DNA from: Eledone cirrhosa
Taxonomy: Eukaryota
Length of the DNA: 64,000 bases
NCBI GenBank assembly: GCA_964016885.1
Contig: OZ024746.1
Coordinates: forward strand, 57,846,001 to 57,910,000
Direction: 5' to 3'
Shown: positions 211 to 59,266 of the stretch, piece by piece
How the letters are laid out: each line of letters opens with the position of its first letter
How positions within the stretch are numbered: the first letter of the stretch is position 1
The notes under the pieces: model-generated
The model's input: only the letters and a program-made list of their open reading frames with translations
Databases searched by the model: none
What the model was told of the DNA's origin: nothing
Made by a program: the position numbers and the translations under genes

Positions 211-582
211 ATTGTTATACTTTGGGAGGGTCATGTTGCAAATAAGAAACACACGCACCAGTTGCGTTCACTTCAATTTATTATAGATTAAATTTATAAA
301 TTTAGGAATTTATAAATTTCCGGCTTATTTTCTTTGTTTTTGTGCCTCACAAAGGAGAGGCACAAAAACAAAGAAAATAATCCCCAGTCACTGAAGATGT
401 CAGAGAATGTGTAACGAAAGAACTTTGACAATATATGAACAATCGTCTGGTTGTGGAACCAACCCGCCAACCGGAAATTTATAAATTCCTATATTTATAA
501 ATTGAATTTATAATAAATTGAAGTGCAAGCATTGGTGCGTGTGTTTCTTATTGGCAACATGACCCTCCCAAAGCATAACAAT
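211..582. mobile_element. Inverted pair of Penelope pLTR/3' ends beside (TA)n; same family as the PLE at 8351-9717
   Basis: 211-323 is an inverted repeat of ~470-582, with an inner IR 325-348/357-380. 357-582 matches the reverse complement of ~8351-8543 (GAGGCACAAAA..AAAGAAAATAATCCCCAGTCA..CATGACCCTCCCAA). Confidence 0.8.
387..429 (+). ncRNA. Minimal type-I hammerhead ribozyme (stem II decayed)
   Basis: GTCA-CTGAAGA-(stem II)-GAAA-GAAC-TT^TGAC; stem I GUCA/UGAC. The sister copy at 8472-8514 shows stem II GUCACAU/AUGUGAC. Confidence 0.65.
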
Positions 583-1467
583 ATCGGTTTCAACACACGT
601 TTTCAGATAAAGAATCTTACTAAACAAATTCAGAAACGAAATATATGTATATATATATATATATATATATATATATATATATATATATATATATATATAT
701 ATGTCCATATGCAATATACATGTATGCGCACTTCTATTATTGATACAAAAATAACACACACACAGCAATAAATAATGCACTTCTACGAAATTCACTGATC
801 TGCATACACATAACAGCACCCATGTAAGACCTGGCCACTCTGCCTATACCCCCATACACGTAGGTCCGAATAATCGTCTACATTCCAGTTTTCTTTTATC
901 CTTTTTTTTTTCCAAACTCCGAAAAACGAAATGAAATGTTTTGAAGGGTAAATCTTAAAAAGCATTTTTTTAACAGATGGATTCCCGCAGTGTCGCACTC
1001 TACCTAGTGTACTTAGGTTCCATTTCATAAAATAGCATCTGAAAACCAAGTCAAAGCGCTGTCCGTGGAGCAAAACACAAGACAACATGGTTAAGCATTC
1101 ACATGTACACATTGAATTTTATATAATTTTCATAGAATCTGTTACTCTCGTGAGACTGAGAAAAGTACGTAAATAAAATAAAGAGAAACTGAATGAATAA
1201 TAAAGACAAGAACAAAGCAATATATACATTTAAAAATGTAAACCATTAACATTATTGTGAGAAGAAGAGAAAATACGCACGTCACAGGATAGTAATAATA
1301 AACTCAAGAAAATTAACAAAAAGATCAGACGACGAACGTTAACAAGGCAAAATGAAAATAAAATTGTTGAAGCCGAAAACTTAACATATTTTTAAAATAT
1401 ATAATACACACGGAAGACACAGACCTCCAAGGACTTCAGCCGTTGATATGTATAGGCGATTGTATGC

Positions 1468-1597
1468 ATCTGATGATTTCTCACGAATGAAACAGTTCTA
1501 CTCCTGTAGAGGCTCTTCTATATTAAAACTTTTATACTCTGCTATGTATTGAGTACCTTACTTACTGTGGTTACCTCCGATTCAACCCGGAATAACT
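1468..1597 (+). repeat. TA-associated repeat (probable pLTR 3' end) with HHR-like core; second copy at 3795-3921
   Basis: Near-identical to 3795-3921. CTGATGA-TTTC..GAAT-GAAAC; ends ..GATTCAACCCGGAATAAC followed by (TA)n. Stems I and III are not convincing. Confidence 0.6.
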
Positions 1598-1748
1598 TTT
1601 ATATATATATATATATATATATATATATATATATATATATATATATATATATATATATATATGGAAAGTTATATTTAAATTGTTGTGTTACAACTAGTAA
1701 ATATTTATAACTGATATAAAAGCACTCGACAAATATTTGGAGTATATT

Positions 1749-2108
1749 TACAATATTAAATAAATGGAAACTATATTTATAAAACCATATTTATTTCATT
1801 ATATATATTTCAGGGATAACATATTAACAATATGCTATGCCTTCCTCAGACAAAATACAATATAAACAGTTTTATAGATAAATAGATTCGACATACCGTA
1901 CCAACATCTACTTGCATTTGACCAAATCAACCTTCTCAAATGCAAGTAGATGTTGGTACGGTATGTCGAATCTATTTATCTATAAAACTGTTTATATTGT
2001 ATTTTGTCTGAGGAAGGCATAGCATATTGTTAATATGTTATCCCTGAAATATATATAATGAAATAAATATGGTTTTATAAATATAGTTTCCATTTATTTA
2101 ATATTGTA
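1749..2108. repeat. 173-bp-arm inverted repeat (14-nt spacer) abutting (TA)n
   Basis: 1749-1921 is the reverse complement of 1936-2108; no mismatch seen by eye. Confidence 0.95.
1992..2072 (+). ncRNA. Hammerhead ribozyme; mirror copy on - strand at 1785-1865
   Basis: Stem I UAUUUUGU/AUGAAAUA, CUGAGGA, stem II AGG(C)AUAGCAUAUU/AAUAUGUUAU(C)CCU, GAAA, palindromic stem III AUAUAUAU, predicted cleavage after AUA (2057). Confidence 0.8.
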
Positions 2109-2360
2109 TATATATATATATATATACATATATATTATATATATATATATATATATATTTATATATATATATATATATATATATATATATATATATATAT
2201 ATATATATATATATATATATATATATATATATATATATATATATATACATATATATTATATATATATATATATATATATATATATATATATATATATATA
2301 TATATATATATATATATATATATATATATATATATATATATATATATATATATATATATA
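2104..2360. repeat. (TA)n microsatellite, representative of dozens in the window (e.g. 3572-3730, 9977-10280, 23920-24176, 24369-24735, 34730-35195, 40495-40668, 45225-45364)
   Basis: Read directly; source of the YIYIYI ORFs. Confidence 0.99.
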
Positions 2361-2518
2361 CAAGCAAGTATGGCACCAAGAAGAATATTATACAATATAT
2401 ATTGTAGTCACCATATATAGACAATTATAGTGGACACAGAAACATATGCTAGAGCAAATGAATTTTTAATGTCCTTTCTCGCCGATGTTTATATCTTTCT
2501 TGGTGCAATACTTGCTTA
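2361..2518. mobile_element. Small MITE-like element with ~21-bp imperfect terminal inverted repeats
   Basis: AAGCAAGTATGGCACCAAGAA ... TTCTTGGTGCAATACTTGCTT; flanked by TA-rich sequence. Confidence 0.5.
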
Positions 2519-56924: not shown

Positions 56925-57282
56925 CCATATATATATATTCATGTGTATGTATGTGTCCACATGTATCTGTGTGTTTCTCTATATATTGTTTATAACTCCC
57001 TTTGGTCGAGTAACCTTTGAAGTGCAGTGACTGTGGATAGCTACCATTACTCATACTTCTCGCCTCCTCAAACCACCTCTTCTGCGGCTTTGATATAAAT
57101 ACCCCCTCCGCCTCCGTGTTATTTTTTCAGCGTTATAAGAGGCTTAGCTCTGTTTCTTGACCGCTGTATCACGTGATTGACTCCCCCTCCGCCTTTTCGA
57201 GATTCTATCTCGCGCACCACGGACGTGTTTTGAAACCCTTGATGGGGTAACCTCTTGATAAGTCGGCAGACCTCACAAAAAC

Positions 57283-57349
57283 TCTATATCTCTATGATGT
57301 AGTGTTCGTGCATAATATGCCACGAAACTACGTAGTCAGGGACTATAGA
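57283..57349 (+). ncRNA. Decayed hammerhead ribozyme
   Basis: Stem I UCUAUA-UCUCU/AGGGA-C-UAUAGA; box mutated to AUGAUGU; GAAAC-UACGUA-GUC^ with palindrome ACUACGUAGU. Confidence 0.6.
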
Positions 57350-57451
57350 AGCAGTTTAGGTATGATATAGCTTATTACTAATTATATATATATATATATA
57401 TATATATATATATATATATATATATATATATATATATATATATATATATAT

Positions 57452-57781
57452 ATATAAGATCAAAAGATGGTTAAAGGAGTTCCATATATTTTATTATGCG
57501 CATTTCAAAAACAAACATCATCATGCAATAATATTTGTGTTTTCATCAGATAAAACAGGAGAACATGATATGAAGGCTAAAAAACACTTGTGGATAGTGC
57601 AGTTTTAAATCAACATATGTTGATTTAAAACTGCACTATCCACAAGTGTTTTTTAGCCTTCATATCATGTTCTCCTGTTTTATCTGATGAAAACACAAAT
57701 ATTATTGCATGATGATGTTTGTTTTTGAAATGCGCATAATAAAATATATGGAACTCCTTTAACCATCTTTTGATCTTATAT
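57452..57781. repeat. 330-bp spacerless palindrome centred on CATATG, abutting (TA)n
   Basis: Centre 57616/57617; no mismatch seen. Confidence 0.95.
57676..57746 (+). ncRNA. Hammerhead ribozyme; mirror on - at 57487-57557
   Basis: UGUUUUAU-CUGAUGA-16-position stem II (G.U-rich, one mismatch, GCAU loop)-GAAA-UGCGCA-UA^AUAAAAUA. Confidence 0.85.
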
Positions 57782-58192
57782 TATGCATACTCCAGTCCTA
57801 CAAACTGTAGAGTGCTTCTTATCCGATATCTGCATTGCTTTATTGTACTACAATAAAACTCACCTCCTACATATATACATATATATATATATATATATAT
57901 ATATATATATATATATATATATATATATATATATATATATATATATATATATATATATTGTTATACTGTTATAACTGTTATATATTGTTATAACTGCTGA
58001 ATAACAGAATTGAACGAACATTATTCTGCCGTCACAGAACTAAAACCCTTTTTTCCCACTACAAGCCGAATATTACATAAAAGAGGGACATCCCCCAACT
58101 ATATAAACCTTAATCTAGTTAGAAAAATATAAAAACAATCTCTTCTCAACATATATTAATAACCTTAAATTACCATACTAATAATAAAAAGA

Positions 58193-58250
58193 TATGCTGA
58201 TGAGAATAGGTACAAATATGCGATAATGAATGTGTCTAAAAACGTCCATA
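58193..58250 (+). ncRNA. Decayed hammerhead ribozyme
   Basis: UAUG-CUGAUGA..UAGGUACA/UGUGUCUA..(A)AAACGUC^CAUA; G12 missing. Confidence 0.5.
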
Positions 58251-59266
58251 AGTATGTATATATATGTGAAAATGTATATAAATAAGTGAATATATATATA
58301 TGTTTGATGTGTATAGTTAGATGTAAGTGTATTCATGTATTAAAGTGCTTATATATATATATGTATGTATATATGTGTATATGTATGTGTATGTATATAT
58401 GTATGTATATATATATATATATATATATATATATATATATATATGTATATGTATATATATATATATGTATATGTATGTATATATGTGTATATGGATGTGT
58501 AAGTATGTGTATGTGTGTACACATGGACTAGAGTATGTATGTATATATGAGTGTGTCTATACGTGTGTATATAAAGATAAGTTGAGTATGAAAATGTATA
58601 CACATGAGCGCGTATGTATGTATATGAATACAAGTGTGTATATATATGTGTATGCATGTGTATATATATGTAAGTATGAATATGTGAATTGTGAGTATAT
58701 GTATTTTGTAGAGGTGTGCAAATATATTTGTGTGTGAATGCGTGGGTGAAAGGATACGTACACTTGAAAGAAAAATTTATGTCTGAATGTTAATTAAGTG
58801 CAAACACAAAACCAACCACGCATATCTTTACTATCTCTAATCCTTCTATAGATTTAGAAAAATAACCAATAATATATTCTATAAAAAATGTCAAAACAAC
58901 AGATGGGAATCTAATTACTCACTGCCACCAAGAATTCTCACTGCTATCGAAAAACCACTCCTTCAACTATTCTTCTAACAACTTCACCCCTCCCTCCTAA
59001 TATTCTCTATAAAAACTAAATAGGTCCTCAGTAATATTATTCTGATGAAATGACAGTAAATAATAACATTGAAATATTGAATGTCTGCATAACTAAAAGT
59101 TTGTAGATAGCTGTTTTAGGTTATGTAACTGTTATAGAAACACGTGTCAATAAATTCCTTTCAACTAAACTGTATCCATTCAAATCTTTCTATATATATA
59201 TATATATATATATATATATATATATATATTTTATATTATATATATATATATATATATATAATTTGT

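Follow-up and report, generated by a model that had tools for sequence, protein, structure and literature searches.

The 64,000-nucleotide stretch of Eledone cirrhosa contig OZ024746.1 analysed here (positions 57,846,001 to 57,910,000; hereafter the window, numbered from its first letter) contains hammerhead ribozyme motifs, most of them with a palindromic stem III, as well as a Hydra-clade Penelope-like element (PLE) with hammerhead regions at both ends and remnants of further PLEs (Table 1). The motifs typically lie close to (TA)n tracts, and their families recur in very high copy numbers in the genome. The window has 33% GC and is rich in (TA)n and (CA)n. With the core CUGANGA, GAAA and UH at a three-stem junction as the criterion for type-I membership, a hand inventory gave 28 hammerhead sites, of which 17 meet a descriptor and 11 fail by core or stem changes. 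These sites represent 14 families and about 19 insertion events, and are therefore not independent. A sequence-only reading of the window had counted more than 20 intact, mirrored or decayed motifs, a claim that the inventory confirms, and all nine stem III words that it named are present beside the coordinates it gave.

Table 1. Hammerhead motifs and PLE-derived features of the window (F0 to F15, hammerhead families; pLTR, terminal repeat of a PLE)
Feature	Position	Strand	Basis
Hammerhead F2, stem III AGAACU with central mismatch, stem II weakened	387..429	+	relaxed descriptor, family clustering
Decayed hammerhead F7	1465..1513	+	inventory
Hammerhead F0 (AUAUAUAU), mirror copy	1792..1857	-	strict descriptor
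Hammerhead F0 (AUAUAUAU), divergent inverted pair with 1849; (TA)n tail end at 2107	2000..2065	+	strict descriptor
Decayed mirror hammerhead F7, stem I mismatch	3739..3787	-	homology, inventory
Hammerhead F7, 16-nt stem III, 4-bp hairpin or symmetric dimer	3790..3838	+	relaxed descriptor
Decayed hammerhead F2, 3' of endonuclease remnant	8470..8515	-	inventory
PLE GIY-YIG endonuclease remnant, second, non-Hydra type (Cys/His pattern by eye)	8717..9262	-	Pfam PF01541, E=5.8e-6
Decayed hammerhead F1 (G8U)	17106..17148	+	homology, inventory
Hammerhead F1 (ACUAGU)	18800..18838	-	strict descriptor
Rearranged hammerhead F1 (internal duplication), mirror of 18834	19011..19065	+	repeat comparison
PLE reverse transcriptase remnant, upstream of F15 motif	20569..20850	+	tblastn, E=4e-6 to 3e-4 against intact relatives
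Hammerhead F15 (ACAUUAGUGU, palindrome with G-U)	22844..22888	+	relaxed descriptor
Decayed hammerhead F10 (family stem III ACGU)	33424..33461	+	family clustering, inventory
Hammerhead F13 (AGUACU)	45015..45053	+	relaxed descriptor
Hammerhead F14 (AUAUAUAU), tail-to-tail with Hydra element inside one AT tract	46517..46576	+	strict descriptor
Hydra-clade Penelope-like element, AT tracts on both flanks	46646..49595	-	repeats, ORF motifs, tblastn
Downstream pLTR hammerhead F9, core broken at G12/A13	46676..46713	-	homology, inventory
Upstream pLTR hammerhead F9 (ACAAUUGU), predicted cut after 49239	49235..49272	-	relaxed descriptor
Hammerhead F9 in inverted 5' copy	49484..49520	+	relaxed descriptor
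422-bp tandem unit x1.9, F1, retrozyme-like; intact hammerheads at 50377 and 49955	49648..50470	-	relaxed descriptor
Decayed mirror hammerhead F3 (G8A)	50915..50997	-	homology
Hammerhead F3 (ACUAAUUAGU, long stem II)	51447..51529	+	relaxed descriptor
Decayed mirror hammerhead F6 (A9G)	52252..52306	-	homology
Decayed hammerhead F6 (A9G; AUAUAUAU)	52537..52591	+	homology
Hammerhead F0 subfamily (AUACGUAU)	52832..52896	-	strict descriptor
U3-A8 core family hammerhead (ACUACGUAGU, 62-nt stem II region), private stem I mismatch	57250..57342	+	family comparison
Hammerhead F5 (AUGCGCAU), mirror copy	57487..57557	-	strict descriptor
Hammerhead F5 (AUGCGCAU)	57676..57746	+	strict descriptor
Hammerhead with very long stem II (ACACGUGU)	59037..59153	+	descriptor with wider stem II limit
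Hydra-type endonuclease remnant; no hammerhead found 3' of remnant	62551..62919	-	tblastn, ORF motifs

The motifs were far more frequent than in shuffled sequence. A strict type-I descriptor gave 7 matches in the window, compared with a mean of 0.18 (maximum 1) in 150 dinucleotide block shuffles and 0.11 (maximum 3) in 150 dinucleotide whole-window shuffles. A relaxed descriptor, which asks only for A15.1-U16.1 in stem III and does not require a palindrome, gave 17 matches against a mean of 0.12 (maximum 1) in 100 shuffles; 13 of the 17 were perfect palindromes, and no palindrome of at least 6 nt was found in the 100 shuffled sequences. The dinucleotide-shuffle control proposed with the sequence-only reading thus came out in its favour. 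One relaxed match, at 22202, was set aside as chance, as its stem III is 3 nt long and it has no relatives, and a wider stem II limit brought in the motif at 59042. Stem I was fully paired (4/4) in 28 of 44 motifs chosen blind to stem I (shuffles, 4.3), and stem II had at least 3 bp in 47 of 64 motifs chosen blind to stem II (shuffles, 14.0). The pairing of stems I and II claimed for the best cases therefore stands in general, but fails at the first stem I pair of the copy at 57283; this motif is present, with a core at 57255-57261 that is of the U3-A8 type and a stem II that is long, and the mismatch is private to it. Likewise, the motif listed at 52537 is indeed an F6 hammerhead, but an A9G core change is found in both mirror copies. 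An Rfam scan of the window returned no match at the gathering score and no hammerhead among the best 150 of 247 weak matches, only microsatellite-driven microRNA matches; such a match is in any case a library match, not a biochemical criterion.

The element at 46646-49595 consists of two direct pLTRs around a broken open reading frame (ORF) for a reverse transcriptase (RT) and a GIY-YIG endonuclease, together with an inverted 5' copy, and the ACAAUUGU hammerhead region occurs in all three repeats. The ORF (about 48981-46887) is interrupted by stops and frameshifts, and its separate frames show RWR, SDKT, YRDD, a CxCX5C linker, a GIY-YIG-type VY..YVG, CxxC and CxH; intact relatives also carry CxCX5C, CxxC and CxH, and 3 of 18 carry RWR. 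The unit measures 2,559 nt (49239 to 46680) with AT tracts at both ends, and shares 37% identity over 626 amino acids (aa) with an intact relative of 706 aa, relatives being about 700 aa long. On these motifs and this layout (RWR, DKT, the linker, a length below 3 kb and (TA)n), the element is assigned to the Hydra clade. Furthermore, 26 of 29 other loci, selected only by the endonuclease of the window element, carry an adjoining hammerhead region.

Further PLE remnants lie at 8717-9262 (GIY-YIG), 12590-12874, 20569-20850, 28173-28367 and 62551-62919. At several loci the F2 motif is found about 150-420 nt 3' of an endonuclease of the 8717 type, F0 lies about 1.5 kb 3' of Hydra-type ends (three loci), and F5 lies 1.3 kb 3' (one locus). 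Together with F9 and the ACGAUCGU family, these families lie on the 3' side of PLE coding remnants of the same strand, at distances characteristic of each family and in some cases at only 1-3 loci, and a copy of the 59037..59153 family in one sampled stretch (L101) sits 332 nt 5' of a Hydra-type RT start. The F9 and F2 hammerheads are located in the pLTR of an RT/GIY-YIG element, and the positions suggest a pLTR origin also for F0, F5, F15 and two long-stem families. The earlier description of the families as unrelated goes too far; they do differ in sequence, but a number of them are linked to PLE coding remnants.

Two other groups of repeats were noted in this context. A GIY-YIG-like remnant of a third type at 28026-28502 (Pfam E=0.003) had no hammerhead seen 3' of it, and its GC-richer 3' region (27580-27735) also matches the start of the window (3-150). 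A short repeat family (24178-24368, 33906-34097, 53758-53817 and 63405-63971) forms inverted pairs beside (TA)n with no hammerhead found, and may represent the terminus of a PLE that lacks hammerheads, for example a Naiad.

We then examined stem III, taking as informative those pairs that close a loop of fewer than 3 nt and are thus impossible within one ribozyme. Among 19 distinct stem III words from recurring families (singletons and the U3-A8 family word excluded), 30 of 34 inner pairs can form (28 Watson-Crick and 2 G-U), and all four Watson-Crick types are present. Shuffled partners gave a mean of 8.8 inner pairs and none of 100,000 shuffles reached 28, a value that is not a p-value since the words share ancestry, and this tempers the case for dimers. 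The monomer stem III hairpins were predicted at +1.5 to +6.0 kcal/mol in 15 of 16 family motifs scored, the exception being F7.

The family containing the motifs at 1992 and 52827 (n=22) has the words AUAUAUAU (11 copies), AUAUGUAU (9), AUACGUAU (1) and AUAUUUAU (1), and among 34 matches near 52827 the variable pair was UG in 18, CG in 11, UA in 2, another in 3 and CA in none. The two motifs had been taken as members of one family that differ by a compensatory UA to CG change; they do cluster in one family, but the difference passes through the abundant UG wobble state. Genome-wide, the wobble form AUAUGUAU (UG) has 31,842 copies against 303 of its mirror AUACAUAU (CA), a ratio of 105:1, where the UG copies go back to a limited number of lineages (by eye, five or more types of stem II) rather than to 31,842 independent events. 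RNA tolerates a G-U pair, but not C-A. As DNA, each of the UG and CA words is the reverse complement of the other, so that neither CpG decay nor a DNA-level site would favour one of them. The UG excess thus provides direct, genome-scale evidence that a pair formable only between two ribozymes is under RNA-level selection. With the 30 of 34 inner pairs and the tandem dimer folds described below, the proposed selection for dimeric stem III pairing appears well supported; dimer pairing itself has already been described for stem III of PLE hammerheads (PMC4209133; PMC6765202).

The genome-wide scale was estimated from 115 stretches of 10 kb (1.15 Mb) at round coordinates on 27 large contigs, with small contigs outside the sample; 4 stretches flanking the window, which hold 2 matches in 40 kb, were excluded. 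The sample gave 129 matches, or 112 motifs per Mb (bootstrap 83-144), in 57 of the 115 stretches, and five shuffles of it gave 1-7 matches each. Background-corrected extrapolation to the 2,996-Mb genome yields about 3.2x10^5 motifs (2.4-4.2x10^5), to which the long-stem-II and U3-A8 families add. The 31 AUAU(A/G)UAU motifs in the sample predict about 81,000 copies, and a direct genome count of the core plus AUAYRUAU, which does not test stems, gave 81,833 (control, 194). Thus, the very large genome-wide population that had been extrapolated is borne out by sample and direct count alike; the window is about 2.4 times denser than the sample average (P ~0.04), so that extrapolation from the window alone overshoots. 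Families with a stem II region of 85-115 nt would escape standard descriptors; they were seen in the sample at L024:8140, L055:4866, L036:4192, L090:1610, L092:4462 and L086:1371 (stretch:position), one of them with a bulged 12-nt stem III palindrome.

Schistosome hammerhead densities may be comparable. Reported counts per genome are about 2,000-9,000 for minimal PLE hammerheads (PMC4209133) and more than 6,000 in a coral, about 5,000 in a mussel and 126,247 in axolotl (PMC7229834), and the load estimated here tops all of these, although the descriptors differ. We found no hammerhead census for octopus or other cephalopods in the literature, where the supplements of PMC4209133 and PMC7229834 may hold per-species counts, and the word 'ribozyme' occurs 0 times in the O. 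vulgaris repeat annotation.

The arrangement of the motifs was also informative. In sample and window together, 77 of 137 motifs have (TA)n within 150 nt downstream; the figure for the upstream side is 30 of 137, and that for random points is 20%. Of the 129 sample motifs, 71 are solo copies, and the others divide equally between inverted pairs (29) and same-strand tandems at 5 loci (29); 100 of the 129 have no same-strand family partner within 4 kb. In the window, two intact motifs of one family share a strand only at 49955/50377. All 25 inverted pairings examined were divergent. The (TA)n ends, divergent mirror pairs and partial tandems match the pattern published for PLE insertions, in which truncation at the 5' end occurs along with partial tandems and an inverted copy of the 5' part (PMC8557442; PMC4209133). 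In all five mirrored pairs folded, the core was predicted to be fully paired inside a long hairpin. About one fifth of the motifs lie in near-perfect inverted pairs, with a predicted double-stranded RNA of 150-450 nt, which, if transcribed, would likely be a large substrate pool for adenosine-to-inosine editing or RNA interference. The A9G change of F6 is common to both mirror arms, at 52301 (-) and 52542 (+), and therefore either is no younger than the insertion itself or passed from one arm to the other by conversion. Elsewhere, the spacer of the inverted F2 structure (322-383) is a perfect hairpin, and the left arm of that structure (213-323) has no motif. At 16654-17423, F1 tails are inverted and nested in a complex way, and three partial copies surround a single motif.

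The family represented at 57283 has 8,149 genome-wide copies of its 3' motif (control, 7), and C3-G8 is replaced by U3-A8 in 53 of 56 matches examined, a swap reported for Schistosoma PLEs with about 1,300 matches (PMC4209133). A parse that gave this family a new A3-U8 core and one additional base was dropped, since a re-parse put the true core, of the known U3-A8 type, 39 nt upstream; no canonical core was found 12-40 nt before the family stem III, the actual spacing of 57-63 nt lying outside the range searched. Of 30 copies examined, 17 have a tandem neighbour, in tandems of about 590 bp. A scan of the sample for variant cores, made without a shuffle control, gave 4 U3-A8 matches (about 3 plausible), 4 weak A3-U8 matches that look like chance or overlap with F3, and no G3-C8 or U3-G8 match. 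Single U3-A8 candidates with different palindromes, at L026:3181 (-), L052:6106 (-) and L125:555 (+), suggest that more variant-core families exist.

Tandem arrays were found for F1, F3, F4 and the U3-A8 family. Seven unit pairs measured 311-595 bp with a GC fraction of 0.35-0.42 and one hammerhead per unit, and their longest Met-initiated ORF was 27-76 aa in six and 137 aa in one. For all seven, the predicted dimer fold lay 0-4.1 kcal/mol from the free minimum and 10-21 kcal/mol below two monomers. By these features, the arrays fit the low-GC, non-coding tandem units of the retrozyme type.

Two dispersed repeats complete the picture of the window. A repeat of about 190 bp, SINE-like (short interspersed nuclear element) and resembling octopus SINEs, has seven copies (14066-14251, 15341-15530, 23012-23208, 25642-25833, 40980-41175, 42479-42634 and 62415-62522), with no hammerhead inside; in the 1.15-Mb sample it is matched up to about 150 times. 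A second SINE-like repeat with a tRNA-like stretch occurs at 56833-56925 and 59267-59439, and forms a perfect inverted pair around an AT core at 59267-59404.

Very probably, dimer-type hammerheads of PLE terminal repeats and of their non-coding derivatives process the RNA of replicating elements, and the genomic copies are mostly inert end-pieces. We infer transcription, cleavage and the order of events as follows. In a transcript through two same-strand repeats, the two stem III palindromes would pair to form a double hammerhead, in which each 5' stem I strand would pair with the 3' strand of the other copy. Two cuts would then free a unit-length RNA, which would measure 2,559 nt in the case of the window element and 311-595 nt in that of the tandem units. 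The RT/endonuclease of the element would begin to copy at (TA)n, usually at a distance of 40-180 nt on the 3' side of the motif. Insertions truncated at the 5' end would leave solo motifs, and inverted 5' duplicates would leave divergent mirror pairs. Selection on the fold would act in the master lineages, after which resident copies would decay neutrally.

Several observations weigh against this interpretation. For F1, F3, F4, F6, F7, F10, F13 and F14, a search for a nearby PLE ORF established no tie; PLE matches near these eight families are few, lie in both orientations and are possibly nested insertions. Overall, the number of links is modest, as 156 copies gave 20 same-strand upstream PLE links, compared with 14, 10 and 10 in the other three classes. 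The 4-bp hairpin of F7 (-1.4 kcal/mol) could act as a monomer. Stem III had been said to remain self-complementary throughout, which is true of the perfect palindromes, but the words of F2 and F11 are unpaired at the centre, and central mismatches occur in AGAACU/AGGACU and in two ACC-NNN-GGU words. In addition, stem III of F9 is better kept (1/156 differences), and a cruder census gave fewer differences in cores (2.1%) than in tails (5.2%), although that census was queried with intact motifs and its tail values are inflated by differences between lineages. Finally, the cleavage of an Anolis PLE is described in PMC11167929 as protein-assisted and dispensable for insertion in vitro, with no reads reported to end at the cut site.

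The sequence-only reading had envisaged a ribozyme population able to cut any intronic or read-through transcript. In such an active host-level system, solo intronic motifs would pair with partners of their family, kilobases away or in trans, and cut pre-mRNAs widely. With about 55 motifs per Mb per strand and 81,833 copies of the AUAYRUAU class, long introns would often hold two compatible motifs, and the core is kept in 125 of 147 sample copies found by homology. However, most motifs have no same-strand family partner within 4 kb, mirrored copies are predicted to be buried in hairpins, and the stem III duplexes are weak (-3.2 kcal/mol for AUAUAUAU). Moreover, no excess conservation of the core was seen. 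Among 26 F9 copies chosen regardless of motif, with rare differences and non-CpG flanks considered, cores differed at 11 of 286 positions and flanks at 73 of 2549 (p=0.36), and 17 of 26 cores were intact against 73% expected, in a test that covers a single family and has low power, which limits its weight in our favour. As the cores of these inserted copies diverge no more slowly than their flanks, it is replicating elements, rather than resident copies, on which selection most likely acted. Published activity is also low, single PLE motifs giving no detectable cleavage and dimers low cleavage in the assays reported in PMC4209133, and a Pfam scan of 138 window ORFs (22, plus 116 of 168 short candidates) recognised no host exon, only PLE domains and weak chance matches. 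The claim that the copies cut host transcripts at large is thus not upheld, and we consider a host-level system quite unlikely.

It also seems very unlikely that the fold was selected for a non-cutting role, for instance to bind the protein that the element encodes or to signal dimerisation for the packaging of two RNA ends. PLE hammerhead mutants still insert in vitro and cleavage depended on the protein (PMC11167929), Naiad PLEs have spread although they lack canonical hammerheads (PMC8557442), and in several of the present families U-U closes off stem II at its base; but the catalytic core is kept in all families, one of them swaps C3-G8 for U3-A8 jointly, as fits a catalytic fold, and cleavage of dimers has been published (PMC4209133). 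That the palindromes are by-products of AT-rich DNA, of CpG decay or of a DNA-level palindromic site can hardly be right. AUAUAUAU is microsatellite-like, CpG sites change about twice as fast (6.2% versus 2.9%), and the lone comparison of 1992 with 52827 proves little; against this, shuffles gave no palindrome of 6 nt or more, GC-rich words exist (e.g., ACGCGU and AUGCGCAU), and UG outnumbers CA, by 18 to none even in the closest relatives of 52827, while DNA processes are strand-symmetric. A bolder picture, in which this is the largest ribozyme population counted (more than 3x10^5, about one per 9 kb), tandem arrays including the U3-A8 family give abundant circular RNAs, and introns are cut in cis with the host selecting against sense-strand pairs, strikes us as unlikely; if true, ribozyme load would be a force on gene architecture. 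Reviews call the in vivo role of PLE hammerheads unknown (PMC7761336), and the copy numbers here make cheap tests feasible, both of intronic strand bias and of whether reads end, or circles are joined, at the cut sites of the families.

The preferred reading, processing of replicating-element RNA by dimeric hammerheads, places the window among known systems. The kind of sequence and the dimer idea are already published, and what stands out is the unusually large scale; the motifs work in the manner of the hammerheads known from PLE pLTRs, and those of F9 and F2 belong to that system outright. With the minimal PLE hammerheads of Cervera and de la Pena (2014, PMC4209133) the window shares type-I topology, a short palindromic helix III, the dimer logic, many families per genome, mostly solo copies, opposite-strand pairs 100-700 bp apart and the U3-A8 variant. 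It differs from that set in the estimated number, about 3x10^5 against some 2,000-9,000 per genome (with differing descriptors), in palindromes that are often 6-10 nt long, and in several families with stem II regions of 50-110 nt. With the Hydra clade (Craig et al. 2021, PMC8557442), which includes the 2,507-bp octopus member Hydra-1_Obim in its supplement, the window element shares RWK-like and DKT (not DKG) motifs, the CxCX5C linker, the endonuclease CxxC and CxH, a single ORF in less than 3 kb, hammerheads, (TA)n targets, and the partial tandem with an inverted 5' copy, whereas the window copy is broken and is placed by motifs and layout rather than by a tree; beyond this clade, a second, non-Hydra PLE type also supplies motifs here (F2). 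Non-LTR retrozymes (long terminal repeat, LTR; Cervera and de la Pena 2020, PMC7229834; Li et al. 2026, 10.64898/2026.07.22.740005) are likewise reported as non-coding tandem units with one type-I hammerhead each, likely PLE-derived, and one axolotl family has U-U at the helix II base, as seen here. In contrast to retrozymes, the arrays here also occur head-to-head, have (TA)n ends like PLEs, and include one large family with a U3-A8 core, and the 126,247 motifs of axolotl (PMC7229834) are spread over a genome roughly ten times larger than that of E. cirrhosa.

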